DNA of 64,000 nucleotides, from positions 432,711-496,710 of the IMG/VR virus record IMGVR_UViG_3300015615_000629. One strand, 5' to 3'. This document shows, one piece after another, positions 34,930-62,657 of this stretch (position 1 is the stretch's first letter; each line of letters opens with the position of its first letter). The notes beneath the pieces were generated by a model. That model was not told the DNA's origin and did no database searches. It saw only the letters and a list, made by a program, of their open reading frames with translations. Made by a program: the position numbers and the translations under genes. The DNA comes from a virus (taxonomy: Duplodnaviria > Heunggongvirae > Uroviricota > Caudoviricetes).

Positions 34930-36345
34930 CTAAATTGTTTTTATATATCTCAAATGCCCTGCATCCCAAATTCTATCATAGCCATTTAACTTCATAATCT
35001 CATATTCCGGCAAGTCGGTAGAATACCCCTCCATTTTAACCAGTTTATGCTTTTGAAACTTCATCCTGTTAAAAAATTGTTTGTTCTTTATATTGTAATA
35101 CCCATATCCAGGTGAAGTTATCCCATCTAATTTAAATCCAATCTTTTCATACAAACCACCAATAGAATACCTTCGATCAGCATAAGACATAATGCTCTTT
35201 ACATCAAAACACTTCAACAATTTGCTAGCACCTCCAACAATATTCACTCCAAGTCTAGAACAATATCTTTTTAATTCATATCCATATTGTTTGTTCGGTA
35301 CAAGAGTCATGCAGGCGACTAATTCTCCATCGTGATACAAACCATATGCTAACTTAGAGTTGTCACTGCCTTGTAAGTGATTGATATTTAGAAAATTATT
35401 CTTTTCTTCAAACGACAACTCCTTTGACACCGTCTGGCGAGCATAAATTACAGCATTTGTTCTTAAATAGCCAGACAAACGGGATTTAACAATATCTTGT
35501 TTGTTTTCCCATTCATTCTCATATATCTGAATCAGGCGTATACCTAATTTGTCTGCAATTTCGGCTTTTTGAAAATGTAGTTTTTTACCAACTACAGACT
35601 CGGTGTGCCAATACATTCCATGATATTCTACCCCAAGTTTTAGTTCTGGAAGATAAATATCTATTTCTTTATAGTCTAACAAACGCTGATTAGTCTGTAT
35701 TTCACCGGAATGTTTAGTTTTAATGAAATCAGCAATCTCACGTTCACCTCTAGATTGGGACATCTCCCCAACACAACCGGGGCAGGCCAAATCAGACTTA
35801 AGATGTGTATAAGCAGCCTGTTCAAAGTCGCCATGTTTTTTACAAGTTATCTTAATTTTATCATGGGCTTTTGTGTAGTCGCCGTGATAAGTGAATTTGC
35901 CGCCATGCGTTTCAGTTGCTAGTTTCTCGAATGTTTGAACATTATAAGCCACGCCACCTTTACATTTCGGACAACCATTTTTAATGTTTATATGATTTGT
36001 TGCCGATTGGATAAATTCTCCATGATTAGGACAAATTATGGTTACTTTAGTGTAGATTCCATTAACGAGATCAACTTTAGAATAGTCATAAAAATCTCCA
36101 TGAACTTCTCTGGCACGTTTGATAAAAGTTTCTTTGGTGTGCTTGCCTACACCTCTACCAGCACAATGAGGGCAGCCACATTTTAAATGTCGATATGGAT
36201 ACTGTTCTACATCACCATGCCTTGGGCATTTGTAGAGAATCTTGGTAACTTTGTTGACATAAACGGTTTCTGAATAATCGTATTTGTCGCCATGTTTGGC
36301 GGTGGCTTTAACAAAAAACTTGGCTGGACTGGCTTTGCTAGACAT
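34930..36345 (-). CDS. Composite homing-endonuclease-like protein: three tandem Cys/His zinc-ribbon modules, a DUF559/Vsr-like PD-(D/E)xK nuclease and a GNAT-like tail
   Basis: Three repeats of HGDKYDYS..V......CP.HG.F.Q.......GCP.C. GVEYHGMYWHTE...IRLIQIYENEW is a DUF559-type motif. The C-terminal VGGASKLL...LYEKIGFKL resembles acyltransferase motifs A/B. Confidence 0.5.
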   Translation of the reverse strand: MSSKASPAKFFVKATAKHGDKYDYSETVYVNKVTKILYKCPRHGDVEQYPYRHLKCGCPHCAGRGVGKHTKETFIKRAREVHGDFYDYSKVDLVNGIYTKVTIICPNHGEFIQSATNHINIKNGCPKCKGGVAYNVQTFEKLATETHGGKFTYHGDYTKAHDKIKITCKKHGDFEQAAYTHLKSDLACPGCVGEMSQSRGEREIADFIKTKHSGEIQTNQRLLDYKEIDIYLPELKLGVEYHGMYWHTESVVGKKLHFQKAEIADKLGIRLIQIYENEWENKQDIVKSRLSGYLRTNAVIYARQTVSKELSFEEKNNFLNINHLQGSDNSKLAYGLYHDGELVACMTLVPNKQYGYELKRYCSRLGVNIVGGASKLLKCFDVKSIMSYADRRYSIGGLYEKIGFKLDGITSPGYGYYNIKNKQFFNRMKFQKHKLVKMEGYSTDLPEYEIMKLNGYDRIWDAGHLRYIKTI

Positions 36346-43758: not shown

Positions 43759-44223
43759 CTAGATGGTTCCGCAAAGATTAACTAAATGATCGACTTCTGC
43801 GTAATTAATGGTGACTTCTCCATCTTTAAACTCTAGATGGCTCAATATAATTCCCTTTGGGAAATCTTCTAAAATCCCCTCACAAAGTTCTTCTGAGAGA
43901 ATAACTGTAAAATCGCATTCTTTATCTAGCCGGCTGCTTGCTAATGGCAGTTGTTCGTATGACCTAACCTTATATGTTTTATAATTACTTAATGTTTTGC
44001 CTGAAGTAATTATAAGCATTTCATCCTGTAAACGGTTATAAATTCTTGTCAGCAAAGGAATGCTTATTCTATTGAAAAGAGGGTCGTCTCCCCAGCAGAA
44101 AATGGTATTATAATCTACCTGAGATTGTAACAATACTGCCAATGCTGTTTTATCACCAGCCGCTTCTAAGAGTCCTGTTTGTTCCCAATTTTCTCTTATT
44201 TCCCAATTTTTGTCTAATTCCAT
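43759..44223 (-). CDS. Hypothetical protein downstream of the portal
   Basis: ATG-initiated ORF. Confidence 0.45.
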   Translation of the reverse strand: MELDKNWEIRENWEQTGLLEAAGDKTALAVLLQSQVDYNTIFCWGDDPLFNRISIPLLTRIYNRLQDEMLIITSGKTLSNYKTYKVRSYEQLPLASSRLDKECDFTVILSEELCEGILEDFPKGIILSHLEFKDGEVTINYAEVDHLVNLCGTI

Positions 44224-44226
44224 AAT

Positions 44227-46767
44227 TTATCCTAAATCTGAATAATCAATTTCTTCTTGATCTTGTTGCTTGCTGTAAGATTGTATTTCAAGATCGTATT
44301 TCTTAATTTCTTCTTTAGAAGGTTCTGCCAATTCTGGCGAGTTTCTTTGTTGCGGTTGGTTTTGATCTTGCGGCTGTCCTTGAGGTTGTCCAATTTGGTC
44401 TTGTGGAATTCCCTCTTCCGGAGGTTGTTCGGGAGTTGGTTGGTTTTGGTTTTGATCAGGAGCGAGCATGGGGTTAGGGCCACCTGCTTCTGAGCCGATT
44501 TCTGTTTCACCTTGACCAGGAGTACCGAAGCCGAGGATGCCTGGATTGCTAGCGATAATTTGCATTCTAAGTTGTTCATATTGTTGCAATTTATTCCTAG
44601 AAATCTTAAGTTCCGCTTCTTTTTCTGGGATTCTTAGGAAATCTATCATGAGATCGAAATCCGAGAAGATGCCAGCGGATTTAAGAGCGGTAGCGTTTTG
44701 AATTCTATTATTCGTAACCTCTTGCATGCTAAGTTCTTGCCACCAAGAGGGAATTGTCATCTTGATGTTGAGGTCGCGGTATAATTGTTTTGGATAACCA
44801 AGCAACGTTAAATGACGTTCTGCTATGGCGTACAATCCATCTTCAACAGAGAGTTGAATTCTACGGATCATTTTGGCGAACTTAACGTCTCTGACTGAGA
44901 GGGTTATTCTCGTTGCATTAGGGTCTGTATTGGAGAAATAATCGTTAGGAAAGTTGAGTGCGGTATAAAGTTTATTTCGGAAATATAACGCATCGTCGAT
45001 TTCGCTCATATTCTGAGCCCCTGGCAAAGTATCAATTCTTGTTTGAGAATTTGCCCGTGTTGGCACCCAAATATCTTCATCGGCAGACGGAGCGAACCAA
45101 CGTTCTTCGGTAGCACTTGCTCCCTGCCCTGTTCCCCTCATAGTAGGAACCTTCTTCTTGCGATACAGCGATTTAATTCTTTCTAAATATGCTTCCGCTT
45201 TACCAGGAGGAAGATTTCCTACATCGATATAGAAAACACGGCGTTCAGGAGCCCTAACCAAACGCATAACAAGCATAGAGTCTTCCATCAATCTCAACTG
45301 ATGGGCTGGCCCTCTAGCTGGCTCGATTAAACTCTGTCCGTAAGGATAGAAAGTATTCCTATCATCGCCGATTCTAAAGTGAATAATTTGATTGGGGGCA
45401 AAGCGAATAGCCGAACTTTGATTCAATTCTTCTTCAGTGGCTTTAGTAACATCTGCTTTAGACAATGCCTGATAATCTGGGCCTTCGGGACTTTGTTGAA
45501 ATTCAACCAGTTTACCTTTGGTGGTTTCAATACGATAAACGCTTTCAGTAGCCAAATCGGCCAACTTAAAGATTCCTGCTTTTGGTTCATTTGGATCAAT
45601 AACTATTTCTAGGAATTTATCGCCATTAATGCAGAGTTGCTTTGTCCATTTCCACAAATTTCTATCAATGTTGAGACGGTCGCGAGCGAAGAAGAAATCT
45701 TCCAATTCTTTTGTCACTTCATCATTTTTACATTTTATTGTAAATAAATGGTCGTTTTCACCGGATTGGCAATTGTGTAAAATAAGGGATTTGGTGGCGA
45801 AGCACTTTAGTTTATCTACAGAAAGGTCATAAACTCTTATTTTTGAATTTTTACGGACGCCAACAACTTTTCGATAATCTTTCTTTTTAGCCAACCAGAA
45901 CATTTCGTCGGTGTGGTAGCCTTTGGTTTTTAGATGGTATCTGATTCCTTCCCATCCTCTGTCGAGCATTTGTTCAATTTGTTTTGTGGTTAAGCCTGCT
46001 TTGAGGCTTTTCATTACTTTGGCGACAAGTTCATCCTCTGGCTTCTTGGTTTCGTCTCTCCATTGGTTGATAAATGTTCTTTCAGATATCCAACTGTCCT
46101 CGAATGTAAAGATTCTTGGAAAAACGTTCTTTCTCAAAGGATTTAGGAGTGTATTTGGTTCCAATCTATAGAAAGGCATTAGGTGATCGCCAACTTTAAG
46201 ATCGCCACCTGCTCTCCAGGTTTCGTCACGCATTAGAACTAAATGGTCTTCTGTAATTACTTCGAAGCTGCCATCGTCTAATGATATTTTTATGGTTTCT
46301 TCGTCTTTAACATATCTTGGATTTTTGGCCCAACCAATGGAATAATCATGTTTTTCGTGGTCATAACCATAGACTAGGAAAGGCTCATCTTTCTTATTTT
46401 CTGCAAGCCATTCGATAGATTTATGTCCAAAATAGACTGTTTGAACGGGTGTATTAGCAGCAAAACATGCTTCATCGGCAATAACCGTCATTACATTTTC
46501 AATTTCAGGAACATTTCTTAATCTTTCATATTCCTTCATTCTGGATTGACGATTGGTAATACTGCTTAGATCAATAAAGTCGCTGCTATCTCTAAGGCGG
46601 ATGGTGCCTTGGGTGCCGCCGAAGGTTCCATCTTGACGGATATCCCGTATAACGTCGGGTCTTAGAACTCCAGCACCTGTCAAATCTTGAGATTTTTGAC
46701 GTTTGGAGATGGGATCATCTTCAGCAGCGTATGTGAATAACTTAAATAAATCAGCCCAGAATGGCAT
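44227..46767 (-). CDS. Portal protein, T4 gp20-like, interrupted by a mini-intein
   Basis: MSEIDDALYFRNKLYTALNFP, SLIEPA and other gp20-like blocks, at about 846 aa against about 520-580 aa expected. An insert with intein blocks A, B, F and G is present. The QNQ/PE-rich C-terminal tail is low-complexity. Confidence 0.75.
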   Translation of the reverse strand: MPFWADLFKLFTYAAEDDPISKRQKSQDLTGAGVLRPDVIRDIRQDGTFGGTQGTIRLRDSSDFIDLSSITNRQSRMKEYERLRNVPEIENVMTVIADEACFAANTPVQTVYFGHKSIEWLAENKKDEPFLVYGYDHEKHDYSIGWAKNPRYVKDEETIKISLDDGSFEVITEDHLVLMRDETWRAGGDLKVGDHLMPFYRLEPNTLLNPLRKNVFPRIFTFEDSWISERTFINQWRDETKKPEDELVAKVMKSLKAGLTTKQIEQMLDRGWEGIRYHLKTKGYHTDEMFWLAKKKDYRKVVGVRKNSKIRVYDLSVDKLKCFATKSLILHNCQSGENDHLFTIKCKNDEVTKELEDFFFARDRLNIDRNLWKWTKQLCINGDKFLEIVIDPNEPKAGIFKLADLATESVYRIETTKGKLVEFQQSPEGPDYQALSKADVTKATEEELNQSSAIRFAPNQIIHFRIGDDRNTFYPYGQSLIEPARGPAHQLRLMEDSMLVMRLVRAPERRVFYIDVGNLPPGKAEAYLERIKSLYRKKKVPTMRGTGQGASATEERWFAPSADEDIWVPTRANSQTRIDTLPGAQNMSEIDDALYFRNKLYTALNFPNDYFSNTDPNATRITLSVRDVKFAKMIRRIQLSVEDGLYAIAERHLTLLGYPKQLYRDLNIKMTIPSWWQELSMQEVTNNRIQNATALKSAGIFSDFDLMIDFLRIPEKEAELKISRNKLQQYEQLRMQIIASNPGILGFGTPGQGETEIGSEAGGPNPMLAPDQNQNQPTPEQPPEEGIPQDQIGQPQGQPQDQNQPQQRNSPELAEPSKEEIKKYDLEIQSYSKQQDQEEIDYSDLG
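45772..46467 (-). other. Hint-domain mini-intein (232 aa) within the portal gene
   Basis: Intein residue 1 is Cys in CFAANTPVQTV (block A). Block B is TxxH, in SFEVITEDHLVLM. The C-terminus is KIRVYDLSVDKLKCFATKSLILHN followed by +1 Cys (HNC). No LAGLIDADG/HNH endonuclease domain fits in the middle. Confidence 0.6.
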
Positions 46768-49703: not shown

Positions 49704-49856
49704 ATGCCGCAGAAACGCAAATTTTACGATCCAATAGTTATTGCTGGTGTTTTAACTGTAAGTTTTACGATTTTAAAAGAAGTTGGAAAAGCCATTGTTA
49801 GCTTTGTAACATATACATTGCTCAAAAAGTGGTGGGAGAAAAGAGATAAAAAATGA
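49704..49856 (+). CDS. 50-aa membrane peptide
   Basis: ATG...TGA overlapping the start of the M28 peptidase gene (ATGA). Central TM helix IVIAGVLTVSFTIL. Confidence 0.3.
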   Translation: MPQKRKFYDPIVIAGVLTVSFTILKEVGKAIVSFVTYTLLKKWWEKRDKK

Positions 49857-51028
49857 ATGATAAAAGACTTATTTTAGTTGTTATCTGTTTGTCGTTAGTT
49901 GGTGGATTTATTGTTTACAATAAATTTTATGAAAAACCACATTTTTCAAATTTACCTGAAGATGCCCCTTCAACGCCTTTCTCTCTACCAGACAAAGAAG
50001 AAGATCCGCTAGAATCCATTAAAGAGTCTGAACTTACAGAGATGCTTAATTATTTGGCTTCTGATGAATTAGAAGGGCGAATGAGCGGCAAAAAGGGGAA
50101 TGTGGTAGCGGCTGAGTTTATAAAGAAGAAATTCGAAGAATTTGGTTTGCCAACGGAATATGACAAATTTAGGATTAGTAGAGAAAATCCAGGCCCTAAA
50201 AATGAGACTGGGGATGACTTTACTCAAAACATTTACGCTTGGATAGAAGGTAACGACCCGAATCTAAAAGATGAAGTTGTAATCATAGGGGCTCATATGG
50301 ATCATATTGGGTATGGCCCTTCTATGAGTAGAGCCCCAAATCGTCGAGAAGTACATAATGGTGCTGACGATAATGGGAGCGGGACGGTTGCACTAATTGA
50401 AATTGCAGAAGCATTTTCATGTGTTAAAGATAAGGTTAAGAGAACTGTAGTGTTTCAGGCATATTCTGCGGAAGAGATGGGTTTGATTGGTTCTCGTCAT
50501 TATTGCGATAATCCTAAGTTTCCGAGAGATAAGCCTGATATTAAGAAGACAGTCATGATGTGCAACCTCGATATGGTTGGATATTTGAATAAAGGTGTTT
50601 ATTCTCTAGCTTGGGGTGCTGGGGATAGTTCTTTGGACATTAGCCGAATAATTGAAGAGTTAAATGAGAAATACACTTTTGCTAGAAAAGTGACTAGTAG
50701 GGGAAGTGGCGGTAGTGATCATGCTAGTTTTTACAACAAAAGGGTTCCGGTGGCTTTCCTTCATACTGGATTACACCCTTACTACCACACACCAGATGAT
50801 GATGTAGATAAGATTAATTTTCAGGGCATGGAACAAATAGCCAAATATGCTTTTGAATTGGCGTGGAAAGTGTGCCAAGGTGAAACGCCGCCAAAATTCA
50901 ATCTTGCTACTTTTAAGGAAATGGAATATACCCATGACCACGGACATCCTGATGTAGAATCTGAAATTCATAGCTATCATAAGCATGAACATGAACACGG
51001 GCACAATCATTCACACGAGGAAAAGTAA
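49853..51028 (+). CDS. M28-family zinc aminopeptidase, membrane-anchored, with a His-rich C-terminal tail
   Basis: All five metal-ligand blocks are present: GAHMDHIG, GADDNGSG, EEMGLIGS, CNLDMVGY and GGSDHASF. N-terminal TM helix. The tail is HDHGHPDVESEIHSYHKHEHEHGHNHSHEEK. Confidence 0.7.
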   Translation: MNDKRLILVVICLSLVGGFIVYNKFYEKPHFSNLPEDAPSTPFSLPDKEEDPLESIKESELTEMLNYLASDELEGRMSGKKGNVVAAEFIKKKFEEFGLPTEYDKFRISRENPGPKNETGDDFTQNIYAWIEGNDPNLKDEVVIIGAHMDHIGYGPSMSRAPNRREVHNGADDNGSGTVALIEIAEAFSCVKDKVKRTVVFQAYSAEEMGLIGSRHYCDNPKFPRDKPDIKKTVMMCNLDMVGYLNKGVYSLAWGAGDSSLDISRIIEELNEKYTFARKVTSRGSGGSDHASFYNKRVPVAFLHTGLHPYYHTPDDDVDKINFQGMEQIAKYAFELAWKVCQGETPPKFNLATFKEMEYTHDHGHPDVESEIHSYHKHEHEHGHNHSHEEK

Positions 51029-51471
51029 TGGATTTAAACAAACTAGTTGAGAAATTGAACGAAGATTTGAACCGTGAATACATGCATATGCATTTTTATT
51101 TGCATGCTGCATCGACTATTTCCGGTACGGATCGGGAAGAATACCGAGAATTTCTATTAGATGCAGCTAAAAGCGAGCTGAATCATATCCATGAATTTAC
51201 CGATATGATTATCGGTCTTGGATATATTCCAACTCCCGAAACCCTGAGTTACCCCACCAACTTAACTAGGGTTAGGGAAATTCTTGAGTATGCCTTACAA
51301 ATAGAAGACGAGGTAGTTGAAAGATATGTCCAACGGATGGATGATGCCGAAGAATTAGAGAAAGAGGGTGGATTGAATAAAGTTCATGGAAGGTTTATTC
51401 ATATTTTTCTAGAAAACCAAATTATGGATTCACGTACCGACGCAGACAATATTCGAAGAATGTTGAGGTGA
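51028..51471 (+). CDS. Ferritin-like (Dps/bacterioferritin-like four-helix-bundle) protein
   Basis: LNEDLNREYMHMHFYLHAA and AKSELNHIHEFTDMI (E..H pairs) fit a ferritin-like di-metal site. Confidence 0.45.
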   Translation: MDLNKLVEKLNEDLNREYMHMHFYLHAASTISGTDREEYREFLLDAAKSELNHIHEFTDMIIGLGYIPTPETLSYPTNLTRVREILEYALQIEDEVVERYVQRMDDAEELEKEGGLNKVHGRFIHIFLENQIMDSRTDADNIRRMLR

Positions 51472-52977: not shown

Positions 52978-54033
52978 ATGTTCTTTCAAAATCCATTCAA
53001 AGAAGACTTCAAAGGTAATTGGGTACTAGGAGATCGCCAGCAAAGTATTACTTTCACATGTCCAGCCAATAAGGGGCGTGGCGACGAGCATATGTGTACC
53101 TGGGCGGTTGGTCCGTATGATCTTAGCGGAAACGATGACGATGGCGTCTCTGAAGCTAATCTAACTCTTTATTACGCCTATGACCCAAACTATAAGTTCT
53201 TTACACCTATTACAATTGACGTAAGTGCCGGTGCCGCTTCAACTTCAGCCGTTACCGTTAGGGAAATTATTGCGGCATTAAATGCCAATACAACATTTTT
53301 CTCTTTATTTGAAGCATCGTTAATGAACGATGTAAAAGTGCTTATTAGGCATAAACGTGCGAGTATGAAGTCCTATGTTTCTAATAACGGTGCGGAAACT
53401 AAATTAAAGTTTAATGGTCGTGCTGGTGTTGCCGAATTGCCTATATATTTCTTGAGACACACCATCGGCAATAGATTTACCTATACGGATTGCACCGCCT
53501 CTTTAGTCCCATTAAACCATTTGATTACAGCGATTTCACAGGCTAGTCCTGCTGCTGTTACATCGGCTGGTCATGGTTTGACAACTGGACAGCAAATAAT
53601 TATCACTGGCACGAATTCAGATGCTGTCATTGATGGCACTAGAACGATTACGTCCACAGGCACGGACACGTTCACAGCGGCAGCAAATGCGGCTACGGCT
53701 GCGGGTAACCGAGGTCGTTATTCTACCTTGGTAGAGGCTGCAATTATTAACAATGCCGTTGATAAGGATGGTAATACTTTAGGCTATAGTGCTTCTAGCG
53801 TCAAAGACGACTGGACACTGCTTGATGGTCGTTCTGGATTGTTTCTTTTCAAGAAAAATACCATAGATGGCAGTAGTCGAGTTACTGTTTCTATTCAATA
53901 TCCGGCAGGTGCTGGGGTTGGAGATTTGGCTAAAATGATTAAGAATACCTACACTGGTGCCGCAACTGAACCGACAAACAGCACCGAATTTCCCTATGTT
54001 TTGACAAGCGGAGATTTGATAACTCCATTTTAA
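52978..54033 (+). CDS. Putative virion structural protein (Thr/Ala/Gly-rich beta protein)
   Basis: GC-richer codon usage like the capsid genes. No motif recognised. Confidence 0.4.
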   Translation: MFFQNPFKEDFKGNWVLGDRQQSITFTCPANKGRGDEHMCTWAVGPYDLSGNDDDGVSEANLTLYYAYDPNYKFFTPITIDVSAGAASTSAVTVREIIAALNANTTFFSLFEASLMNDVKVLIRHKRASMKSYVSNNGAETKLKFNGRAGVAELPIYFLRHTIGNRFTYTDCTASLVPLNHLITAISQASPAAVTSAGHGLTTGQQIIITGTNSDAVIDGTRTITSTGTDTFTAAANAATAAGNRGRYSTLVEAAIINNAVDKDGNTLGYSASSVKDDWTLLDGRSGLFLFKKNTIDGSSRVTVSIQYPAGAGVGDLAKMIKNTYTGAATEPTNSTEFPYVLTSGDLITPF

Positions 54034-54056
54034 TGAATTAATCACTATATAATGAT

Positions 54057-54563
54057 ATGGAAGACTTCAAAGTAGAATCTATTATTCTTGATGATGGTCG
54101 TCGCGGCGAGAAACGTGTCAAAGACAGCGAAAACGAACACGTTGTTGAAATTCACATCGAGCCGGAACGCCCGAAATATCTTGGCAAACGTATTGTGGAA
54201 ACAAAGCGTCCTTGTGTTGTTCGCCGTCAAGTTGAAACTTTCAACGAAAAAGGTGAAGTTGTTGACACCAAGGTCGAAGCCTTAAACTCAGAAGAAAAGT
54301 TTTACAATGTAACTCCACAACCTTCTCCAGAATATGTAACAAAAGCAGATCTGAATGAATTTGCTGAAAAAGTACGTGCTGGGATTGTGGCTGCTGTAAC
54401 CACTTCCCAAGAACCAGTTAAATCTATGTCACCGAAGAAATCGCCTTATAATTTGGCGGCTCCGGTAGATGTTCCTGCTGATAAACCAAAAAGCAATAAA
54501 ATGTTCTGGATACTGCTTATTGTTGGACAGTTGGCCGCCTTATGGTATCTGTGGCAGATGTAA
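54057..54563 (+). CDS. C-terminally TM-anchored protein
   Basis: C-terminal MFWILLIVGQLAALWYLW helix. Confidence 0.4.
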   Translation: MEDFKVESIILDDGRRGEKRVKDSENEHVVEIHIEPERPKYLGKRIVETKRPCVVRRQVETFNEKGEVVDTKVEALNSEEKFYNVTPQPSPEYVTKADLNEFAEKVRAGIVAAVTTSQEPVKSMSPKKSPYNLAAPVDVPADKPKSNKMFWILLIVGQLAALWYLWQM

Positions 54564-54698
54564 ATTGGAATTTTGTTTTACATAATTCAATCGGTTGTGA
54601 AATTCTGGTTAAAGTTCCTATAAAGGAAACAATTATAAAACCAGATTTTAGAAGATTACAGGAACCGATTGAGAAGTATGCTGAGTTTTACGAGTTGT

Positions 54699-55295
54699 TT
54701 AAATTCCCCAAAGGCGTTTAAAGTCGGCTAACCATCCCTTACGTTCTTTTTCTTGAATGGTTCTGTTTTCATCGGTTCTGGCTTTGCTTTTTATCTTTGT
54801 TTTTTCAAGGGCGGTTGGATATAAGCGTTCTATCCATAATTCCCATTCATTATTTGGAACATAAGATTCTAGTTCAGTTCTCAGTTCTCTATAGACTTGA
54901 TATCCTTTTGCTAAAACTTTAATTTCTAGAGGGTCTGGATAGAGATAAATTTCTAGATGCATGCCGCGATTTAATCCATCAAAATGGTAGCAATGTAAGG
55001 TTTTAGATACCTCTTGTATATTTGGTCTCTCATCGCCCCATTCTGGGTATCCTGCTAAATCTGGATATGCTTCTTCGTCTATGTTTTTGGTAGGAATTAG
55101 TTCTTCTTCGGCGAAATAATCATCTAGAAACCTTTGGTCTACAAAAGAGCCGCCATCATACTGTTCATAAACAGGCTGTCCCATACCTCGAACGATGATG
55201 GCAATCTTGCCATTTAGCCCCATAAAGTTCTTTTTAGTTGCTTCTATTGTTCTTTGATCTCGGATTCTTTTTTGGAAGTCGTCTAGGTTTGCCAT
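54699..55295 (-). CDS. Hypothetical protein
   Basis: ATG at 55295 overlaps the MscL gene's end by 62 nt. An alternative ATG lies at 55223. Confidence 0.4.
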   Translation of the reverse strand: MANLDDFQKRIRDQRTIEATKKNFMGLNGKIAIIVRGMGQPVYEQYDGGSFVDQRFLDDYFAEEELIPTKNIDEEAYPDLAGYPEWGDERPNIQEVSKTLHCYHFDGLNRGMHLEIYLYPDPLEIKVLAKGYQVYRELRTELESYVPNNEWELWIERLYPTALEKTKIKSKARTDENRTIQEKERKGWLADFKRLWGI

Positions 55296-55725
55296 TTATC
55301 ACTCTTTCACCACAGTAGCAACATTTTTTACTTAACCAATAGATATCTTTATAACAAGATTCACAAATTCTCGTATCGAGACATTCAATTTTCGGTTTTT
55401 GAAAAGTTCCGAATATCTTTTTGTATATTATGTACAAGACTAGAGAGATTATTATAAAATCTATAAAAGAGCCAACCAGATAGCCAACTTCTAGATTTAA
55501 GCCTTGAATTGGCGAGTAATTGATATTACGCCAGTTATTTCCAGTTGTGCCAATAATATAATTAAGAATTGGCATAAAGAGATTGCTTGTCAAAGCGGTT
55601 ACTACTTTTTGAAAAGCAGAGCCGATAATAAAGGCTATGGCCACATCGACCATTCTATTTTTGAAAGCAAACTCTTTATATTGATGAAATTCTCGTTCTA
55701 GAGCATATTTTCCGTGGAGGTGCAT
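55234..55725 (-). CDS. MscL-family large-conductance mechanosensitive channel with a C-terminal Cys-rich zinc-ribbon extension
   Basis: FHQYKEFAFKNRMVDVAIAFIIGSAFQKVVTALTSNLFMPIL matches the MscL N-terminal amphipathic helix and TM1 (KEFxxRGNVVDLAVGVIIGAAF...IMP). A second TM follows. The tail is CESCYKD...CCYCG. The track start is TTG 55782; ATG 55725 was chosen. Confidence 0.6.
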   Translation of the reverse strand: MHLHGKYALEREFHQYKEFAFKNRMVDVAIAFIIGSAFQKVVTALTSNLFMPILNYIIGTTGNNWRNINYSPIQGLNLEVGYLVGSFIDFIIISLVLYIIYKKIFGTFQKPKIECLDTRICESCYKDIYWLSKKCCYCGERVINGKPRRLPKKNPRSKNNRSN

Positions 55726-55846
55726 TAAATAGTATAGTAACAGAAAGGCTTTAATGTTTTTATTGGTTAAAAGTTTATTCAACAGGTTGATAGGTTATGC
55801 CGGAGCCGAAAAACAAGATTTTTTGCATCTTACCGGCAACATTAGC

Positions 55847-57256
55847 ATGCAGCTAAATGACCCGACCACGCCGGATTTAAGGGTTCAGGTTTCATTGCCT
55901 TCTATGAGCAAATATCTGGGCTTTGCTGTAGCAGGATTTACTGGAGATTTAACCCCAGGAACCGCCTCTGCACAGGCTGCTAATTGCTATTACACTTTGG
56001 CCAAATCTATTGAATTTACCCAAAGCTCCATTGGAAAATTTAAAGAACCTTTGAAAAAATGGTCAGCAGTTGACAAATTGGCTATTTTCCCCCGTGCTGG
56101 TAAAGATTTTAATGCCTATTACGACAGGCAAGCCTTAAGGTTCTTCTATGAGAAAGACCCTTCTACCAGTAGAACCATCTATACTGCGGACAGCATGGAC
56201 ATTGTTGCTCATGAATTGGGACACGGCTTACTTGATACCATGCGTCCTGATTTCTGGAATGTCCAGGCTTTAGAAATTTGGGCGTTTCATGAATCTTTTG
56301 GTGATATCAATGCCATGATTACGCTTATGCACTTCGATAAGGTAATTGAAAAAGCCCTTGCTGAAACTAATGGCGATTTAAGAAAATCCAATACAATTTC
56401 CAGATTAGCTGAAGAATTGGGTTCTGCTATTTACCATTTAACCGGTGGTCGAGATGGCAGCAAGCCAGATGCGTTACGAAATGCGGTAAACGACTTCACT
56501 TATGTAAAACCTGAAACATTGCCTGAAATTGCTCCTAACGATCAATTGGCTGGGGAACCACATAGTTTTAGTAGGGTGTTTACGGGTACGTGGTATGACA
56601 TGTTCGTTAGGATTTACGAGAAAAATGTCAGTAGCGGGATTAATCCTGTAGATTCTGTTAAGAATGCCAGGGATGTATCTGGTTTGTATATTTTACAGGC
56701 TATCTCTCAATGTCCGAGAACGGCACGTTTAATGGACGCTTTGGCCAGAAACATGCTTTTAATTGACAAAAATTCTGGTGGTGTGCATCAAGAAATTTTA
56801 CACGATGTTTTCAAGGCCAGAAAAATCCTTTCTCCATCTAACAAATTAATGGGTAACGAATTAACCCTAGAACAAATGAAAAGCACAATGGGGGGAACCG
56901 ACGAAATCGTTCATAGCAGGGGCTTAACAGCAGTCATTAAGAGGGACGCTCAAACAATTAAGTTATCAGAAGGGATGCGTTCATTAAATGCAATTTCTGC
57001 CAACGGTTTTGACTTAAACACCTTAGAATTAGAAATCCCAACAGACTCATATTACGAGTTCAACGATGCTGGAAAAATGGTTTATTCTCTTGTGGCTCAA
57101 GAAGATGAAGCGATTGAAGCCGCCAAGGCATGTGCTAATGTCATTTATATTACCGAGGATATCGGTGCAGACAATAAAACCAGTTGGGATGCCATTGATG
57201 GCAAACTAATTAGGAGCAGTATCGGGGGCTGCTTTGGCTTTCACTCTGCCGGTTGA
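55847..57256 (+). CDS. Gluzincin metalloprotease, thermolysin (M4)-like HEXXH+ExxxD
   Basis: VAHELGHGLLD, then 22 residues, then HESFGD (E-x-x-x-D). An alternative upstream ATG lies at 55754. Confidence 0.6.
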   Translation: MQLNDPTTPDLRVQVSLPSMSKYLGFAVAGFTGDLTPGTASAQAANCYYTLAKSIEFTQSSIGKFKEPLKKWSAVDKLAIFPRAGKDFNAYYDRQALRFFYEKDPSTSRTIYTADSMDIVAHELGHGLLDTMRPDFWNVQALEIWAFHESFGDINAMITLMHFDKVIEKALAETNGDLRKSNTISRLAEELGSAIYHLTGGRDGSKPDALRNAVNDFTYVKPETLPEIAPNDQLAGEPHSFSRVFTGTWYDMFVRIYEKNVSSGINPVDSVKNARDVSGLYILQAISQCPRTARLMDALARNMLLIDKNSGGVHQEILHDVFKARKILSPSNKLMGNELTLEQMKSTMGGTDEIVHSRGLTAVIKRDAQTIKLSEGMRSLNAISANGFDLNTLELEIPTDSYYEFNDAGKMVYSLVAQEDEAIEAAKACANVIYITEDIGADNKTSWDAIDGKLIRSSIGGCFGFHSAG

Positions 57257-57646
57257 GTCGAATTCAATCGTATTGACATTGATATCGATTTGTTTGTAGA
57301 CTAGCTCCGCATAAGGCTTATCTCCCATTATGTCCACTCGAATGTCAACTCGGGATATGTTTTCTTCTATTTGTTTTATTTCAATAGCTAGCTTTTTATT
57401 CGACTTCACGGTGGTGATTTTGTAGGTATTGTTTTTTTCGTGTTTTTCTTGTAAAATCTTTAAATCTAGCTCTTTTAGGGCGTGTTTGGTGGACAAATAA
57501 ACATGTTTGGCTTGAAATGGGTAATATTTTTGTGCTTCCCCGTCTTTCCACATAATAATTCCATTAACTAGTGGAGTAACTAAGACATCGGCTGTGGAAC
57601 AGCCGATAAATGCTAAAGACATGAGCAAAAGTATAAATTTACGCAT
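57206..57646 (-). CDS. Lipoprotein (lipobox LAFIGCS)
   Basis: Signal peptide plus Cys. Convergent 51-nt overlap with the metalloprotease gene. Confidence 0.45.
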   Translation of the reverse strand: MRKFILLLMSLAFIGCSTADVLVTPLVNGIIMWKDGEAQKYYPFQAKHVYLSTKHALKELDLKILQEKHEKNNTYKITTVKSNKKLAIEIKQIEENISRVDIRVDIMGDKPYAELVYKQIDINVNTIEFDSTGRVKAKAAPDTAPN

Positions 57647-57655
57647 AATTTATTT

Positions 57656-57910
57656 ATGAGGTTAAAAATGTTAATTAGTGATTTTCCCAATGAATTTATG
57701 GTTGCTATTTCTGACTTCCTTGCCAGAAATCAACTCATTATGTCCGATGATGAAGATTTAGATGACTTGGAAGAAGACGACGATGATGATACTGACGAAG
57801 ATTGGGAAGATGAAGATTTAGACGATGACGATTACGACGATTTTGATGAAGACGAAGACGACGAAGATGATGATTGGGATATAGATATCGACGAAGAGGA
57901 CGATGAATAA
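57656..57910 (+). CDS. Hyper-acidic small protein (D/E-rich C-terminal two-thirds)
   Basis: DDEDLDDLEEDDDDDTDEDWEDEDLDDDDYDDFDEDEDDEDDDWDIDIDEEDDE. Its stop is TAATG-coupled to the next gene. The antisense ORF is R/H/L-rich junk. Confidence 0.5.
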   Translation: MRLKMLISDFPNEFMVAISDFLARNQLIMSDDEDLDDLEEDDDDDTDEDWEDEDLDDDDYDDFDEDEDDEDDDWDIDIDEEDDE

Positions 57911-58287
57911 TGGGAGTTGGCATTTGTTTTGGTGAAACTTTTTCTGGAATGTCGAATGCATGGGGACATACCTATGGCTCACGGCAAGTTGTTCAAAAGG
58001 AGAATAAAAAAGAACCGCCTCCTCCTAATCCAAACCCTTCAAAATATAAGATTTTAAAAAAGAAAATAGTAGGAAAATTCCTAGTAGTTGAGATTGCTTA
58101 TGACGGTTGCACGAACTACGAGGGCAAGAAGATATTAGTATTTAAAGACGTTTCGTATCAAAAGTTAATGGAACAACAATCAATAGACCCGCATTTTTCT
58201 GAAAATAAAGATTTAATTTCTCCAATTGCTCGCTTTGAGCCCACCAAACGTGGTTGGAAATTGGCTATTAGTTTTGCATCTATTTAA
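57910..58287 (+). CDS. Hypothetical protein
   Basis: TAATG coupling. Confidence 0.4.
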   Translation: MGVGICFGETFSGMSNAWGHTYGSRQVVQKENKKEPPPPNPNPSKYKILKKKIVGKFLVVEIAYDGCTNYEGKKILVFKDVSYQKLMEQQSIDPHFSENKDLISPIARFEPTKRGWKLAISFASI

Positions 58288-59053
58288 ACAACAATCTTCT
58301 ATGTATTGGTAATTTCTTGATGCTTGTCTTAACCTTAAAAGGTGAAGGCATAGGAATTTTAGGATCACGCCTTAAGTTGTGATCGATAATCGGCAATTTG
58401 TACGGAGCCTTGCTGGTCTTTGCCGGAATAATGTCGTTGTCGGCGTAAATAACACAGGCCCAGGAATCCCATCGCTTTTTGAATCTTTCCACGTTCATGG
58501 TCTGAACTTTAAGGCTGTAGTCGCTATTATCCACCCATTTAACAACATCCTTTTCTTCATCAAAGTGGACAAGTACCATAGCATGCCCTGGCACGCCGAA
58601 TAAGCAACCTCTGCCTTCTTCCATTGCCCTACGGATTAATTCTAATCCTTGCTCTCTGTCTTGATAGCTTTGTTCAAACTTGACTTCTAATTTAGTTAAA
58701 ACACTTTTTACCAACGACGGAGAAGAATATGTAGAACATTCTTTTCGGCTGGTAAGTGGTGGCTCAGTTAATTTTGGTTCTTCAGCCCAACGACCGAGCA
58801 TTTCAATAGAAGACCAAACACATTGGGTTCCTGTGTGATTTTTTACTCTATCTTTCTCAGGAATAGGGCATTGAATATCGCTGGGCGCGGTTTCGCCGCC
58901 CATTGAAATGTACGGAGCAGTATAGTCTGTCGTATAATTTGATGGATCGCGTTCAAGAGGCGACAGTTGTTCTTCTGGGGATTTGAAGTGCTTGTAAAGA
59001 AAAACAAATCCGGCGAACAACAAGAAACTTAGTAGGAATCCTTTCCAGTGCAT
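58280..59053 (-). CDS. Membrane-anchored papain-fold cysteine peptidase (C39/transglutaminase-like)
   Basis: N-terminal TM helix. HTGTQCVWSSIEMLG places a Cys at a helix N-terminus, and GHAMVLVHFDEE supplies the His. Confidence 0.45.
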   Translation of the reverse strand: MHWKGFLLSFLLFAGFVFLYKHFKSPEEQLSPLERDPSNYTTDYTAPYISMGGETAPSDIQCPIPEKDRVKNHTGTQCVWSSIEMLGRWAEEPKLTEPPLTSRKECSTYSSPSLVKSVLTKLEVKFEQSYQDREQGLELIRRAMEEGRGCLFGVPGHAMVLVHFDEEKDVVKWVDNSDYSLKVQTMNVERFKKRWDSWACVIYADNDIIPAKTSKAPYKLPIIDHNLRRDPKIPMPSPFKVKTSIKKLPIHRRLLFK

Positions 59054-60423
59054 CTTTATCTGCTTTCTAAAACATTTTTAGTTCTTGCTTCGACCAATCG
59101 ACTTAATTAATCAAAAATATTAACCAGAGGCCAACTGTCCACAAGCGTAATTTCCCGAATAGCCTTCGGTAAGTATATTTTTTGCTGCGTTTATATCTCT
59201 ATCAATGCTAACGCTACACTGATCACAAACATAAACTCTTTCACTCAATGGCATTTTCTGTTTGTTTCCGCAATTACTACATAATTGACTACTTGGAAAA
59301 AAACGTCCTACTTTGTAGACTTCATTATTCCAAATGTCTTTTTTATAGTCTAATTGACGATAAAACTCTCCTAAACCTACATCTGCCAATGTGAAACTTA
59401 GCGAACGATTCTTAAGCATGCCTTTGACGTTTAAATCTTCAATACACATAATTTGGTTTTCATTACATAATTTTGAAGTAATTTTATGCCAAAAATCTTG
59501 TCTAATATTACTTAGTTTTAAGTGTGCTCTTTGCAATTTAATAATTTGCTTTTTGCTATTATTGCTTCCTTTTTGTTTTCTTGATAAACGTCTATAAAGT
59601 TTGGCAATTTTTTTCTTTTGTTGTTTGAAGGGCCGTGGCGGCTTTATTTGCAAACCATCACTAGTGGTAATTGCCTCGTTAATCCCTAAATCTACACCGA
59701 TAACACTCTCGCCAGATCGTTCTTTTGAATAATTATCAACGTCAACACGAACAGAAACGAACCATTGGCTAGCGCGGCAGCAGATAGTACCTGATATTAT
59801 TTTACCTTTTAATCTCAAATTTTCAGAAACTTTAATTCGCCCTATTTTTTGAATTTTTATTTGTTTATTTCCAAATACAAATCTATCATTAGAAACATAA
59901 AATGAGTCTTTTTTGCCTTTCTTTTTGAAAGTTGGATATTTGGATAATTTCTTGAAAAATCTTTGAAAAGCATTGTTTAGATTAACGAATGGTTGTTGGT
60001 TGGCATCTTTTGGGCTTTCGTAGACCCATTTAGGCTTTTCTTTATTCCATAATTTTTTCAACTCGTTTGCTGTAGGTTTTTGTCCTTGTTTATACAAGTC
60101 AGTCCATTTTGCCAATGCCCAGTTGTACGTAAATCTAGCCGTTCCACAAGCTTTTTTAAGCATAGTGGTTTGTTCTTTGTTTGGATAGATTTGTATTTTG
60201 TGGGTCAATATCAAAATTTATCTCCGTATTATTTTTTTCTTCCTTTTAACAGGCGGCAACTGATCAGATCCAGGTGTGTGAACATCATTCCAGGCACCTA
60301 TCGATTGCCCCTTGCCTGGATCGGGATCAACAGGATTTTGTTTTGGAGGTTCCAAACCTCCACCCAAAACCTGTGATTCCAACCAATTCTTAAAACCAAT
60401 ACCGTTCACAGAGTTATATATCG
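59054..60423 (-). mobile_element. IS200/IS605-family insertion (tnpB-only, IS1341-like), about 1.37 kb
   Basis: It contains tnpB. The upstream ~200 bp, 60215-60423, is GC-rich. It carries subterminal hairpins, CCAGGCA-16 nt-TGCCTGG and GGAGGTT-cca-AACCTCC, which are LE-like. The short 3' segment 59054-59119 would be the RE/omega-RNA region. Boundaries are approximate. Confidence 0.55.
59120..60214 (-). CDS. tnpB: TnpB (IS605 OrfB-family RuvC-like RNA-guided nuclease)
   Basis: N-terminal KIQIYPNKEQTTMLKKACGTARFTYNWAL. RuvC-I motif IGVDLGI. C-terminal zinc finger CSNCG...CDQC. RuvC-III DRDINAAKNI. TTG start. Confidence 0.8.
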   Translation of the reverse strand: MILTHKIQIYPNKEQTTMLKKACGTARFTYNWALAKWTDLYKQGQKPTANELKKLWNKEKPKWVYESPKDANQQPFVNLNNAFQRFFKKLSKYPTFKKKGKKDSFYVSNDRFVFGNKQIKIQKIGRIKVSENLRLKGKIISGTICCRASQWFVSVRVDVDNYSKERSGESVIGVDLGINEAITTSDGLQIKPPRPFKQQKKKIAKLYRRLSRKQKGSNNSKKQIIKLQRAHLKLSNIRQDFWHKITSKLCNENQIMCIEDLNVKGMLKNRSLSFTLADVGLGEFYRQLDYKKDIWNNEVYKVGRFFPSSQLCSNCGNKQKMPLSERVYVCDQCSVSIDRDINAAKNILTEGYSGNYACGQLASG

Positions 60424-60921
60424 TTAATTACAAAAGGAATCAGTCAGATCTTCCATTTTCTTAATTTCTAGATAATGTCTGATGGGATATGGATATTCAT
60501 CCCCTTCTTCGATGACATTCATTTTTAAGAATTCATTACCGCCATCTTTATAATCCAGAAGATTTGTGGCTGTAATGGGTCTTATGTTTGCCCGATACCA
60601 AATATCTTTTTGAAGTGGCGTCATTTTACGCCATGTATCATTAGAGAGATTATTTGGTTTATAACCATTTGGTTTTTGGGGCAGATTTATATGATATCCA
60701 TTTTCCAGACTGTGAATAAAACTATCAGAATTCCCGTTATTAACTAGGAAATATTTACAAAATACCTCTTCTCCTGGTTCAGAAGTTGTTCCTTTGAAAA
60801 ACCAGATTGGGATACTTACCCCGACAACTTCGATATCTTTACCTTCGTGTAAATCATATCTTTCTTGTTTGGTCAGGTAAACATTGTGACATACAGATAA
60901 TACTAAACTTTGAGGTGCCAT
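60424..60921 (-). CDS. Hypothetical protein
   Basis: The track start is TTG 60951. The first ATG is 60921. Confidence 0.4.
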   Translation of the reverse strand: MAPQSLVLSVCHNVYLTKQERYDLHEGKDIEVVGVSIPIWFFKGTTSEPGEEVFCKYFLVNNGNSDSFIHSLENGYHINLPQKPNGYKPNNLSNDTWRKMTPLQKDIWYRANIRPITATNLLDYKDGGNEFLKMNVIEEGDEYPYPIRHYLEIKKMEDLTDSFCN

Positions 60922-60953
60922 ACGGATATATAATATGAAGGGATTTGCCAATT

Positions 60954-61898
60954 ATGCACAAAACATGGAAGTCAATCAAGATCATAGCAGCAACAGTTGC
61001 AGTTCTTTTTTCTATATTTCTAGTATCTTACGAGCCTGTGCATGAGCCAATTATTCTTGTGCCTGCTCAGGGGCCTCTTCCAATGCCTTTGGTATTGGAT
61101 ACTAACCCCCTTACAGCAAACAAGTTATACGGCGACCCCAGACCACAAAGAGACGTAGAATACAGAGAATATTTGTGTGCTTCGTTGAAGATTTCTGTGA
61201 GTGGGGCAAGCGGCTCAGGAACTATTGTTTATTATGACCACGAAAAGAACGAAGCCTATGTGGCATCTTGTGGTCACTTGTGGAGCGGCAGCCGAGATGC
61301 CAAAGACATTAAATCTCCAGTAACTTGCAAAGTGATAACTTGGTATCATAATGACGAAAAGTTAAAAGAACCGAAATCATATCCGGCCGAAGTCCTTTTC
61401 TGGTCGAATAATAGCGGTTTCGATACCAGTTTACTTAAATTTAAGCCTGATTGGGTTCCTAATTACTTCCCAATTGCTCCGGAAGATTACAAGCTAGAAG
61501 AAGGAATGCATTTGCATTCTTGTGGCTGTGACCATGCCGAAGAGGTTGCTCATTATGACGTTGAGGTTGTTGGCTATGAAGGCAAAAACCTAGTTACTAA
61601 ACTCAACAGCCCTCGTCCTGGTCGTTCTGGTGGTGGTTTAATGAGCGATGATGGTTTTTATGTAGGAACTTGCTGGGGGACTAGCGATACTAGTGGTAAT
61701 GGCGTTGGTTATTTTACAACTTTGAAGGCAATTACTACTGTTTATACAAGAAATGACTATAAATGGCTTCTAGAAGTCGGCCCAAGTGGAGTTGCCAGAC
61801 AAATTCCTATGAGAAGATGGTCTAGAATTGAAGATTTTGATTCCAATAAAATTCCAATGCCTGGACGGGGGAGTTTGCCAGCACCGTTATCTCGCTAG
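60954..61898 (+). CDS. Membrane-anchored chymotrypsin-fold serine peptidase
   Basis: TM helix IIAATVAVLFSIFLV. GASGSGTIV and GRSGGGLM (a GDSGG-like catalytic Ser motif). The track start is TTG 60945; ATG 60954. Confidence 0.5.
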   Translation: MHKTWKSIKIIAATVAVLFSIFLVSYEPVHEPIILVPAQGPLPMPLVLDTNPLTANKLYGDPRPQRDVEYREYLCASLKISVSGASGSGTIVYYDHEKNEAYVASCGHLWSGSRDAKDIKSPVTCKVITWYHNDEKLKEPKSYPAEVLFWSNNSGFDTSLLKFKPDWVPNYFPIAPEDYKLEEGMHLHSCGCDHAEEVAHYDVEVVGYEGKNLVTKLNSPRPGRSGGGLMSDDGFYVGTCWGTSDTSGNGVGYFTTLKAITTVYTRNDYKWLLEVGPSGVARQIPMRRWSRIEDFDSNKIPMPGRGSLPAPLSR

Positions 61899-62657
61899 AT
61901 TGAAAGCACAAATGCTTTTATAATCACATCTGGAACAGTGTCGGCCAACATTACCTATTACTGTATCGGGGTTGGAACGCTCGATTTCCATATAGGCTTT
62001 TAAAAGAATCTGTTCTGCTTCTATGAGCGATTTTTCTGTGAATCTAACAGGAACAAGATTAGCTCCATCTAGGTAATACAAAGCACCCCTGATATCCGAT
62101 GGGTCTACATTAAATTCTTTTTGAATTACTCTCGCATAGCACCTAAGTTGCAAATCACCTACGATGGATATTTCATCTTTCCTCCAGGAGCCCTTCTTGG
62201 TGGTTTTATAGTCGATTAGGAAATACTTTCCATTCTTATTAATGATTCGGTCGATAAAACCTGTAACAAAACGGTTGTTGGGAGGGTCTAAATCATATGA
62301 GAACTTATATTCTACAATTCCTTCAAGTCCAACCTTTTCTGTCAGTAATTCCAACGCTTGAACATGTTCTGGGAGTTTTGCCTTGTAATCTTTGGGAATC
62401 GCAGGTACAAAGATATCCTGTCCTTCTGGAGTTTGTTCAATAGGGATACGTCCCAATAAAACATCAGCACACACCTCTTTTAATGGCTTTTTCGAAACAA
62501 CATAATGTTCAGCAATTTTGTGAACTATTTTCCCATAAGTGAAATAAAATGGGGTAGGTTCTGGAGACGGAACATTCAGGTGGTAGCGAAATTTATACTT
62601 TTGAGCACATTCGTCCCAGACCCCCTTGCGTGAAATAGAAATAGCATTTATATTCAT
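61887..62657 (-). CDS. PD-(D/E)xK nuclease, Cas4/RecB-like, with a C-terminal Cys cluster
   Basis: YFLIDYKTTKK (D-x-K). C-terminal CSRCDYKSIC plus an upstream Cys, a likely Fe-S cluster as in Cas4/AddB. Confidence 0.6.
   Translation of the reverse strand: MNINAISISRKGVWDECAQKYKFRYHLNVPSPEPTPFYFTYGKIVHKIAEHYVVSKKPLKEVCADVLLGRIPIEQTPEGQDIFVPAIPKDYKAKLPEHVQALELLTEKVGLEGIVEYKFSYDLDPPNNRFVTGFIDRIINKNGKYFLIDYKTTKKGSWRKDEISIVGDLQLRCYARVIQKEFNVDPSDIRGALYYLDGANLVPVRFTEKSLIEAEQILLKAYMEIERSNPDTVIGNVGRHCSRCDYKSICAFNLAR

Follow-up and report, generated by a model that had tools for sequence, protein, structure and literature searches.

Hyper-acidic phage proteins are already known and include T4 gp67, a region of SPO1 Gp44, and Ocr. 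In T4, gp67 is a component of the head core that is cleaved by gp21 after L/I-x-E sites (PMC9026906; PMC9958956), and a 3.9-kDa gp67 fragment is kept in the mature head (PMC9026906). Residues 56-122 of Gp44 are 57% aspartate or glutamate (D/E), are disordered, have been described as resembling single-stranded DNA, and bind RNA polymerase (PMC8208478). DNA mimicry has also been described for the small acidic protein DSS1 (PMC7641332, PMC11329725). The present analysis concerns a hyper-acidic gene within a stretch of 64,000 nucleotides (nt) from a virus of the Caudoviricetes (positions 432,711 to 496,710 of IMG/VR record IMGVR_UViG_3300015615_000629), termed the window. The encoded protein falls outside the known families by the tests made, and no description of its own family, or of the pairing of its gene with that of a neighboring protease, was found in the open-access literature on hyper-acidic phage proteins.

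The acidic open reading frame (ORF) is almost certainly a genuine protein-coding gene that specifies an intrinsically disordered polyanion of 80 amino acids (aa) and belongs to a positionally conserved family. The gene and its parts are the following.

57658..57661, plus strand: Shine-Dalgarno-like GAGG, 6 nt ahead of ATG 57668.
57668..57910, plus strand: coding sequence of the hyper-acidic protein, 80 aa, net charge -46, stop codon TAA at 57908-57910.
57668..57745, plus strand: N-terminal module, residues 1-26 (MLISDFPNEFMVAISDFLARNQLIMS), with a predicted amphipathic helix at residues 6-20.
57746..57907, plus strand: polyanionic tail, residues 27-80, with 44 D/E of 54 residues and no K/R/H.

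An initial annotation of the window had reported the ORF at 57656..57910 (+), which is present and encodes 84 aa (translation MRLKMLISDFPNEFMVAISDFLARNQLIMSDDEDLDDLEEDDDDDTDEDWEDEDLDDDDYDDFDEDEDDEDDDWDIDIDEEDDE; the coordinates include the stop codon). The start is where that assignment fails. Translation very probably begins at ATG 57668, giving 80 aa, because GAGG lies 6 nt before it, the closest relative of the protein (P0001, described below) begins at the same Met, and an in-frame stop lies upstream in that homologue, where a TAA is found 12 nt 5' of the P0001 ATG. The ATG at 57656 is probably an upstream in-frame ATG that is not used.

The tail carries a net charge of approximately -44, and the last basic residue stands at position 24 or earlier in the 84-aa numbering. 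Strong acidity is as first described, while the share of about 85% D/E was set slightly high; the measured values are 79% over residues 29-84 (44/56) and 81% from the first tail Asp (44/54). The remaining residues were said to be spaced aromatics. Spaced aromatics are present, successive ones being separated by 10, 3, and 11 residues, but Leu, Ile, and Thr are interspersed as well. The non-acidic tail residues are L35, L38, T46, W50, L55, Y60, F63, W74, I76, and I78 in the 84-aa numbering, of which the hydrophobic and aromatic ones correspond to L31, L34, W46, L51, Y56, F59, W70, I72, and I74 of the 80-aa protein. Set against the 340 stop-to-stop ORFs of the window with 50 aa or more, the D+E content of this ORF is an outlier by 9 standard deviations. 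The second most acidic ORF, a gp22-like scaffold in the gp22 slot, has 22% D+E.

Ordinary searches are nearly blind to this protein. No matches were returned from Pfam-A (at E <= 0.01 or E <= 1), PHROGs, a word-indexed search of 5.8 billion proteins, or a pattern scan of IMG/VR, and phmmer against the PDB gave a single spurious match to pp71 (E 0.013) and no true relative. Exact-sequence matches of window proteins lie only on short contigs, in which the acidic gene is not covered. An exhaustive phmmer scan of 1.84 billion representative proteins recovered one relative, P0001, of 49 aa (E 9.6e-4). The two proteins have in common the N-terminus MLI[ST]DFPNEF[MI]VAIS, with 70% identity across 23 residues, and the acidic tail of P0001 is shorter. 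A similar N-terminus is absent from the other window ORFs and from the fetched loci. P0001 is encoded on an 860-nt contig (locus L011), where its acidic gene (+) is preceded by the terminal part of a metalloprotease gene (+) and by a DUF3568 lipoprotein gene (-), and is followed directly by the terminal part of a gene for a 257-aa protein in convergent orientation. Over the first 15 codons, the window and L011 differ by six synonymous and two conservative changes; the N-terminal codons are under purifying selection. The N-terminal module is the sole part with ordinary sequence conservation, which is restricted to the sub-lineage of the window. Tail matches found by blastn in the jumbo phages Xanthomonas PhiXhv-12 and Erwinia phB78 were set aside as compositional, as they are acidic tracts within larger, unrelated proteins.

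The acidic genes constitute a fast-evolving, positionally conserved family in huge phages with T4-like heads, located downstream of a thermolysin-like protease gene. In the window, the surrounding genes are the following.

55754..57256, plus strand: zinc metalloprotease of the thermolysin/fungalysin fold (HExxH...E), the conserved upstream partner on the same strand.
57206..57646, minus strand: DUF3568 lipoprotein gene (Pfam DUF3568, 5e-14), between the protease and acidic genes.
57910..58287, plus strand: 125-aa phrog_13501 gene (PHROGs), overlapping the acidic stop (TAATG).
58280..59053, minus strand: membrane-anchored papain/C39-like protein of 257 aa, with invariant Cys78, His157, and Asp175 in the alignment.

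The acidic gene begins at 57668, downstream of the protease gene, which ends at 57256. Loci fetched by means of the 257-aa protein (3 from IMG/VR and 23 from metagenomes) display a conserved block in the order p351, p168, p198, (MscL-like), metalloprotease, (DUF3568, opposite strand), acidic gene, 257-aa C39-like, p175, trypsin-like, PD-(D/E)XK nuclease, and Toprim primase. The DUF3568 gene occurs in many lineages, not all, and the C39-like gene is a frequent neighbor. Block genes p198, p175, p168, p351, and p206 have no Pfam or NCBIfam annotation. In each metagenome locus with the metalloprotease, a single hyper-acidic ORF follows it closely on the same strand. This same-strand order of protease and acidic gene, at a distance of no more than about 1.5 kb, is found in loci L011-L037 and L040, and the published uncultured phage LR756511.1 also carries a hyper-acidic ORF downstream of its protease.

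A sampling independent of the acidic gene was drawn from the protease alignment. It comprises 80 IMG/VR loci with a guanine-cytosine (GC) content of 27-60%, of which 71 have at least 900 nt downstream of the protease. A hyper-acidic ORF (at least 64% D/E over 25 residues, same strand, no more than 1.5 kb downstream) is present in 62 of these 71. One further locus has the ORF 1.8 kb downstream of the protease gene and three have milder versions with 56-60% D/E; counting milder or displaced versions, the gene is found in about 66 of the 71 loci. The other five keep the protease and have no acidic gene. Elsewhere in the 628 kb retrieved, no comparable hyper-acidic ORFs occur. Motifs resembling AGGAG or GGAG stand 5-10 nt before the start in nearly all of 17 family genes, from loci of 26-56% GC. 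Where the lipoprotein gene is absent, the gap between the protease and acidic genes is about 55-100 nt, consistent with their co-transcription, and this same-strand pair is the most conserved feature of the locus. The initial annotation had likened the protein to anti-restriction proteins; an accessory gene of that kind does not agree with a fixed slot in ~90% of a broad huge-phage clade, a distribution unlike that of typical anti-restriction genes. A gene of ~206 aa without a family match (MN[LP]A[IF][EQ]YL.R..., e.g., L012 5618..6238 (-)), which is missing from the window, abuts or overlaps the acidic stop in 33 of 110 related loci.

What the family holds in common is composition and pattern. 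Members have at least 56-64% D/E over 25 residues and almost no K/R/H, with the non-acidic tail residues being mostly L/W/Y/F; the window protein has both this composition and the position downstream of the protease. Across 71 distinct family proteins, the median length is 108 aa (range 56-172) and the median net charge is -68, with tails of about 20 to 130 residues. Among the 1048 tail residues that are not D/E, 212 are W, 197 L, 150 Y, and 93 F, which together make up 62%, and K+R+H make up 5%. Changing an Asp or Glu codon to one for W, L, or F requires at least two nucleotide substitutions, and Tyr is one substitution from Asp. Residues that are one nucleotide change away from Asp/Glu codons (A+V+Q+H+K) account for 9%. 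Because the commonest non-acidic residues are mostly two or more changes away and the one-change residues are rare, the hydrophobic and aromatic residues appear to be selected rather than products of repeat drift, and by these codon distances the composition and the hydrophobic pattern are under selection. Lineages favor one residue type, as in (LDDEDD)n, (DDDDDF)n, and (DEDDW)n, and some tails consist of near-perfect tandem units. Close relatives differ in tail length with the reading frame intact. Short aromatic motifs recur in the family (DDGWYY, P[DE]W[LM]EE, and ENPYY). The N-termini fall into many unrelated, lineage-specific sub-types, and that of the window protein is rare.

These observations effectively refute a chance ORF over a GAY/GAR-rich low-complexity DNA tract. 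Such an origin could point to the weak tandem and triplet periodicity of the tail DNA and to the ORFs that are also open across the tract on the opposite strand. Chance would not preserve the same position, orientation, and Shine-Dalgarno motif in more than 60 loci of such different GC content, nor does it fit the synonymous-dominated substitutions in the N-terminal codons, the non-random choice of interspersed residues, or the absence of an Rfam match from 54000-62000.

Structure prediction provides little that is rigid. The AlphaFold2 model of the 80-aa protein has a single amphipathic helix at residues 6-20, with the rest a low-confidence coil (mean predicted local distance difference test score, pLDDT, 61.6; predicted template-modeling score 0.20). 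The protein is probably intrinsically disordered, as this model and the composition suggest. A net charge per residue of approximately -0.58 denotes a strong polyelectrolyte, an expanded coil in the polymer-physics classes of disordered proteins, and the acidic protein would be such a coil.

The initial annotation had likened the charge pattern of the protein to that of Ocr and ArdA and proposed to look for a B-DNA-like charge distribution by structure prediction. A folded double-stranded DNA mimic of this type, blocking type I restriction-modification enzymes, would account for the very high negative charge, small size, and phage origin, yet it is very improbable. The window protein and eight other members match no Pfam family, those of Ocr and ArdA included, PHROGs and PDB sequence matches are likewise absent for the window protein, and the predicted fold is limited to one helix. 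A sequence with 81% D/E cannot make a hydrophobic core, the variable tail length is incompatible with a fixed B-DNA-like charge array, and the gene is core-like and syntenic rather than accessory. A rigid Ocr- or ArdA-like body is thus unsupported, as is a rigid charge pattern. The initial annotation also held that intrinsic disorder with no binding partners would refute mimicry; disorder is probably real, but disorder alone does not refute a mimicry function, and a flexible, single-strand-like polyanion mimic or decoy is plausible.

The best reading, although a tentative one, is that the tail acts as a disordered polyanionic mimic or decoy for basic nucleic-acid-binding proteins. The tail would be a flexible, nucleic-acid-like polyanion in which carboxylates take the place of phosphates, and the spaced aromatic and aliphatic side chains take the place of bases or serve as hydrophobic anchors. 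Spaced aromatics among carboxylates would be the expected design for imitating bases and phosphates. The disordered region of SPO1 Gp44 and the acidic protein DSS1 provide precedents for a mimic of this sort. The chain could bind multivalently to basic surfaces, for example SSB and other OB folds, nucleoid proteins, RNA polymerase, or nucleases, and the bound proteins would be sequestered or the chain would compete with DNA. The lineage-specific N-terminal motif may dock the chain on a specific partner, possibly the adjacent protease. Throughout, we infer the binding partners and the biological role.

Several points weigh against a decoy. An anti-defence decoy would not typically be conserved almost universally in one fixed slot of a core-like block, and such conservation suits a housekeeping role in the phage, for example assembly, at least equally well. 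The constant neighbor is a protease and not a DNA-metabolism gene, and the net charge of the protease, which ranges from -14 to +10 across homologues, indicates no simple electrostatic pairing. In the window, the T4 late-promoter motif TATAAATA shows no enrichment, with 3 occurrences versus 6.2 expected. The disorder itself is drawn from composition and from an AlphaFold2 model built on a single sequence, which is a weak model.

A role in assembly has a concrete precedent in the head of T4. The window encodes a gp23-type major capsid protein that is 70% identical to that of the 595-kb LR756511.1, as well as the following head genes.

38854-39570, minus strand: gp21-like prohead protease.
44227-46767, minus strand: gp20-like portal, 846 aa.

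The portal has an intein-like insert at residues 153-332 (Intein_splicing 2.9e-8, just under the Pfam cut-off). The exact sequence of the window metalloprotease is also present on a contig of 572,167 nt. Owing to the head genes, the capsid likeness, and this contig, the window is taken to derive from a huge phage whose head is T4-like. A 471-aa ORF at 34930..36345 (-) with DUF723 and CapR-like domains adjoins the major capsid gene and may be a homing-endonuclease-type mobile gene.

It is possible, although doubtful, that the acidic protein is a small prohead-core protein resembling gp67, whose acidic tail helps to build or size the scaffolding core of a very large T4-like capsid; protease trimming might then leave an acidic peptide in the head. 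The architecture and length are those of T4 gp67 (80 aa, helical N-terminus, acidic tail), the phage has gp20-, gp21-, and gp23-like genes together with the acidic ORF in the gp22 slot, the head operon itself contains no gp67-like gene, and near-universal conservation suits a morphogenetic function. The ORF that follows the portal, 43759-44223, is not acidic. The motif [LI]xE is slightly enriched in the N-terminal regions of the family (35 versus 25.1 +/- 4.6 in shuffles), but any N-terminal [LI]xE is present in just 28 of 60 proteins and none in the closest relative, L011. In the window protein, the L/I-x-E sequence is L34-E35-E36, which lies inside the acidic tail and not at the junction with the N-terminal module. 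Pfam GP67 (PF17634) recovers T4 gp67 at 1.8e-48 and does not match the window protein or eight other members at E <= 1. The gene is ~11 kb from the portal and does not belong to the head operon, spaced aromatics are lacking in T4 gp67, whose tail contains Lys, and T4-like cyanophages do without gp67 and gp68 (PMC1079782). A common capsid-targeting-like N-terminus was not found; this candidate was rejected as not significant, as was a likeness to gp68 or to the capsid-targeting sequence of T4 (a local 'NEFIV' match).

Another candidate role, about as probable as that in the head core, follows from the neighbor itself. The protease is a 500-aa protein with HExxH and a downstream Glu, its start is probably Met32, near 55847, and no signal peptide was seen on reading the sequence. 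Its Pfam M4 match is weak. The AlphaFold2 model, from a 63-sequence alignment, has a mean pLDDT of 91.8, and Foldseek matches it to M36 (fungalysin) and M4 (thermolysin) structures with E of 1e-6 to 5e-4. More than 1358 homologues were found, many on contigs of 0.5-0.63 Mb and several of these on contigs of 0.58-0.63 Mb. In a tblastn search of 50,697 phage records, the protease matched only LR756511.1 and one fecal contig, and a cultured relative was not found. Longer homologues (P0064, P0078, P0087, P0097, and P0118) end in a Cys-rich module (C.C..NNACDPNAPEYGKPWKG.NNAGC...SRKVC) that the window protease does not have.

Enzymes of the M4/M36 fold favor bulky hydrophobic P1' residues. The acidic protein could be the dedicated partner of the protease, as an inhibitor or pseudosubstrate acting in trans, an adaptor for basic substrates, or a precursor cut at the spaced hydrophobics; any such partnership is a possibility to be held with reserve. 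The conservation of the gene pair and the short gap between its members speak for it, as do tails punctuated by residue types that match this P1' preference, some of them near-perfect tandem units such as (LDDEDD)n. Fusions of the protease to an acidic tail were not found among the longer homologues inspected, and five loci keep the protease without the acidic gene. Classical thermolysin disfavors an acidic P1 residue, and the tail may be a poor substrate if acidic P1 is disfavored here too. A uniformly basic protease that pairs electrostatically with the acidic protein was also considered and is unsupported by the protease charges.

The decoy and protease-partner readings are not mutually exclusive. 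Combined, the protease and the acidic protein would form a two-gene host-takeover device, in which the disordered polyanion, as an adaptor that mimics nucleic acid, strips basic DNA- or RNA-binding proteins of the host (nucleoid proteins, SSB, ribosomal proteins, and nucleases) off their nucleic acid and delivers them for proteolysis; the combination is unlikely. Such a device would be a protein version of the polyphosphate-Lon mechanism, maintained throughout a huge-phage lineage. Alternatively, the acidic protein could be a polyprotein precursor, and cleavage by the protease at every Leu/Phe/Trp would yield uniform oligo-Asp/Glu peptides.

The genes flanking the pair divide into conserved members and local arrivals. 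In the window, the divergent start codons of the lipoprotein and acidic genes are 21 nt apart (57646..57668); therefore, unless transcription from the protease gene continues into the acidic gene across the lipoprotein antisense, at least one promoter must be located within coding sequence. On the other side, the initial annotation had described translational coupling of the acidic gene to the next gene. The TAATG overlap of stop and start exists, but it is specific to this genome. The C-terminal domain of the 125-aa protein (YDGCTNYEG..IDPHFS..ARFEPT..GW) is common to phiCbK-like Caulobacter jumbo phages, Xanthomonas phage Xoo-sp13, and other huge phages. No acidic gene lies upstream in five homologue loci with ORFs listed (LR756501.1, LR756511.1, and three IMG/VR contigs), and no acidic candidate is among the annotated genes around the homologue in Caulobacter phage CcrSC. 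Conversely, the 125-aa gene is missing from L011 and other syntenic loci. A conserved coupled pair is rejected, since the relatives of each gene occur without the other, and for the same reason the TAATG coupling is best regarded as a local accident of insertion. By these sequence comparisons, the 125-aa gene is an insertion specific to this genome and outside the conserved module.

Directly upstream of the 257-aa gene, at 60218..60409 (-), is a gene for a conserved peptide of ~60 aa with F-K-x-W-L-E-x-x-x-x-G-G, a Pro-rich stretch, and the basic tail KRKKKIIRR; it is also found at L012 4696..4884, L013 4648..4911, and L014 4681..4863. The peptide and its C39-like neighbor look like a double-glycine-leader peptide with its processing peptidase in a huge phage. 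An IS605-type TnpB gene at 59120..60214 (-) (OrfB_IS605, Cas12f-like TNB, HTH) is inserted between these two genes and is missing at that position in related loci. A gene for an MscL-like mechanosensitive channel lies at 55234..55782 (-), and MscL-like and DUF3568 genes recur in many related huge-phage loci. The MscL-like, DUF3568, membrane-anchored C39-like, and trypsin-like proteins make up an envelope-directed gene set. M28 peptidase and ferritin-like genes adjoin at 49853..51471 (+), just upstream of the conserved block, and the window has at least four peptidase-like genes in addition to the prohead protease.

Such a neighborhood bears on one more function for the tail, a bulk cation sink in the infected cell, where the tail would buffer or sequester Mg2+, Ca2+, polyamines, or cationic peptides. 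The extreme carboxylate density, the mechanosensitive-channel-like and envelope-directed neighbors, and the small conserved peptide with a basic tail encoded nearby are all in keeping with it. A sink leaves the selection of spaced L/W/Y/F and the lineage-specific N-terminal motifs unexplained, a metal-binding motif is absent, and on balance this function is quite improbable.

Huge phages above 500 kb are known almost solely from metagenomes, and the majority of their genes lack a functional assignment. An oddity of one genome has here become a defined gene family with more than 70 distinct members, conserved in composition and pattern rather than sequence. Ordinary homology tools miss such families, as the single relative from the exhaustive HMMER scan illustrates. 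New is a composition-defined disordered polyanion with hydrophobic anchors that is fixed beside a thermolysin-like protease across a huge-phage lineage. Should the protein be a flexible DNA mimic, mimicry would extend from rigid folded proteins to a widespread disordered class. A head-core component would bear on the scaffolding of very large T4-like capsids, and a co-worker of the protease would define a new phage effector pair.

Compared with known systems, the acidic protein resembles each in part. Ocr (T7 gp0.3) and ArdA, which act by charge mimicry, are also small and strongly acidic and come from mobile elements. Both are folded, rigid dimers whose carboxylates form a defined B-DNA-like array, whereas the present family is predicted to be coil, varies in length, and has no family match; the three-domain elongated fold of ArdA cannot fit 80 aa with one predicted helix. 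DSS1/Sem1 is similar in size and acidic, with Trp and Phe residues set among its acidic stretches as anchors on OB-fold and helical surfaces. It differs in being far less acidic, conserved in sequence, eukaryotic, and without linkage to a protease, and Pfam DSS1_SEM1 does not match the acidic protein.

The acidic tails of E. coli SSB (...DDDIPF) and of T7 gp2.5 and gp4 end in hydrophobic or aromatic residues and dock on basic pockets. A comparable acidic run with a terminal Y, W, or F is found in 16 of the 71 family members. Here the motif is repeated internally, no OB-fold domain is attached, and the window protein ends in ...DEEDDE. SPO1 Gp44 is also phage-encoded and has a repeat-like disordered segment without basic residues, at 57% D/E versus 81% in the tail described here. 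Gp44 differs in its three-part architecture (27 kDa), in which the N-terminal domain is folded and binds DNA, and in being the product of an early host-takeover gene of a Bacillus phage; it has no sequence relationship to the acidic protein and no linked protease.

T4 gp67 is alike in its 80 aa, its helical N-terminal part, and its almost pure Asp/Glu C-terminal tail (34 residues in gp67), and both proteins are encoded by phages with the T4 head-gene set. Homology is not detectable, the acidic gene is not in the portal-to-protease slot, and the gp67 tail has Lys and Ser and no spaced Leu/Trp/Tyr/Phe. In T4, the gp67 gene adjoins that of the protease that processes gp67; the neighbor of the acidic gene is also a protease, but a zinc enzyme of the thermolysin-like type rather than the serine prohead protease.

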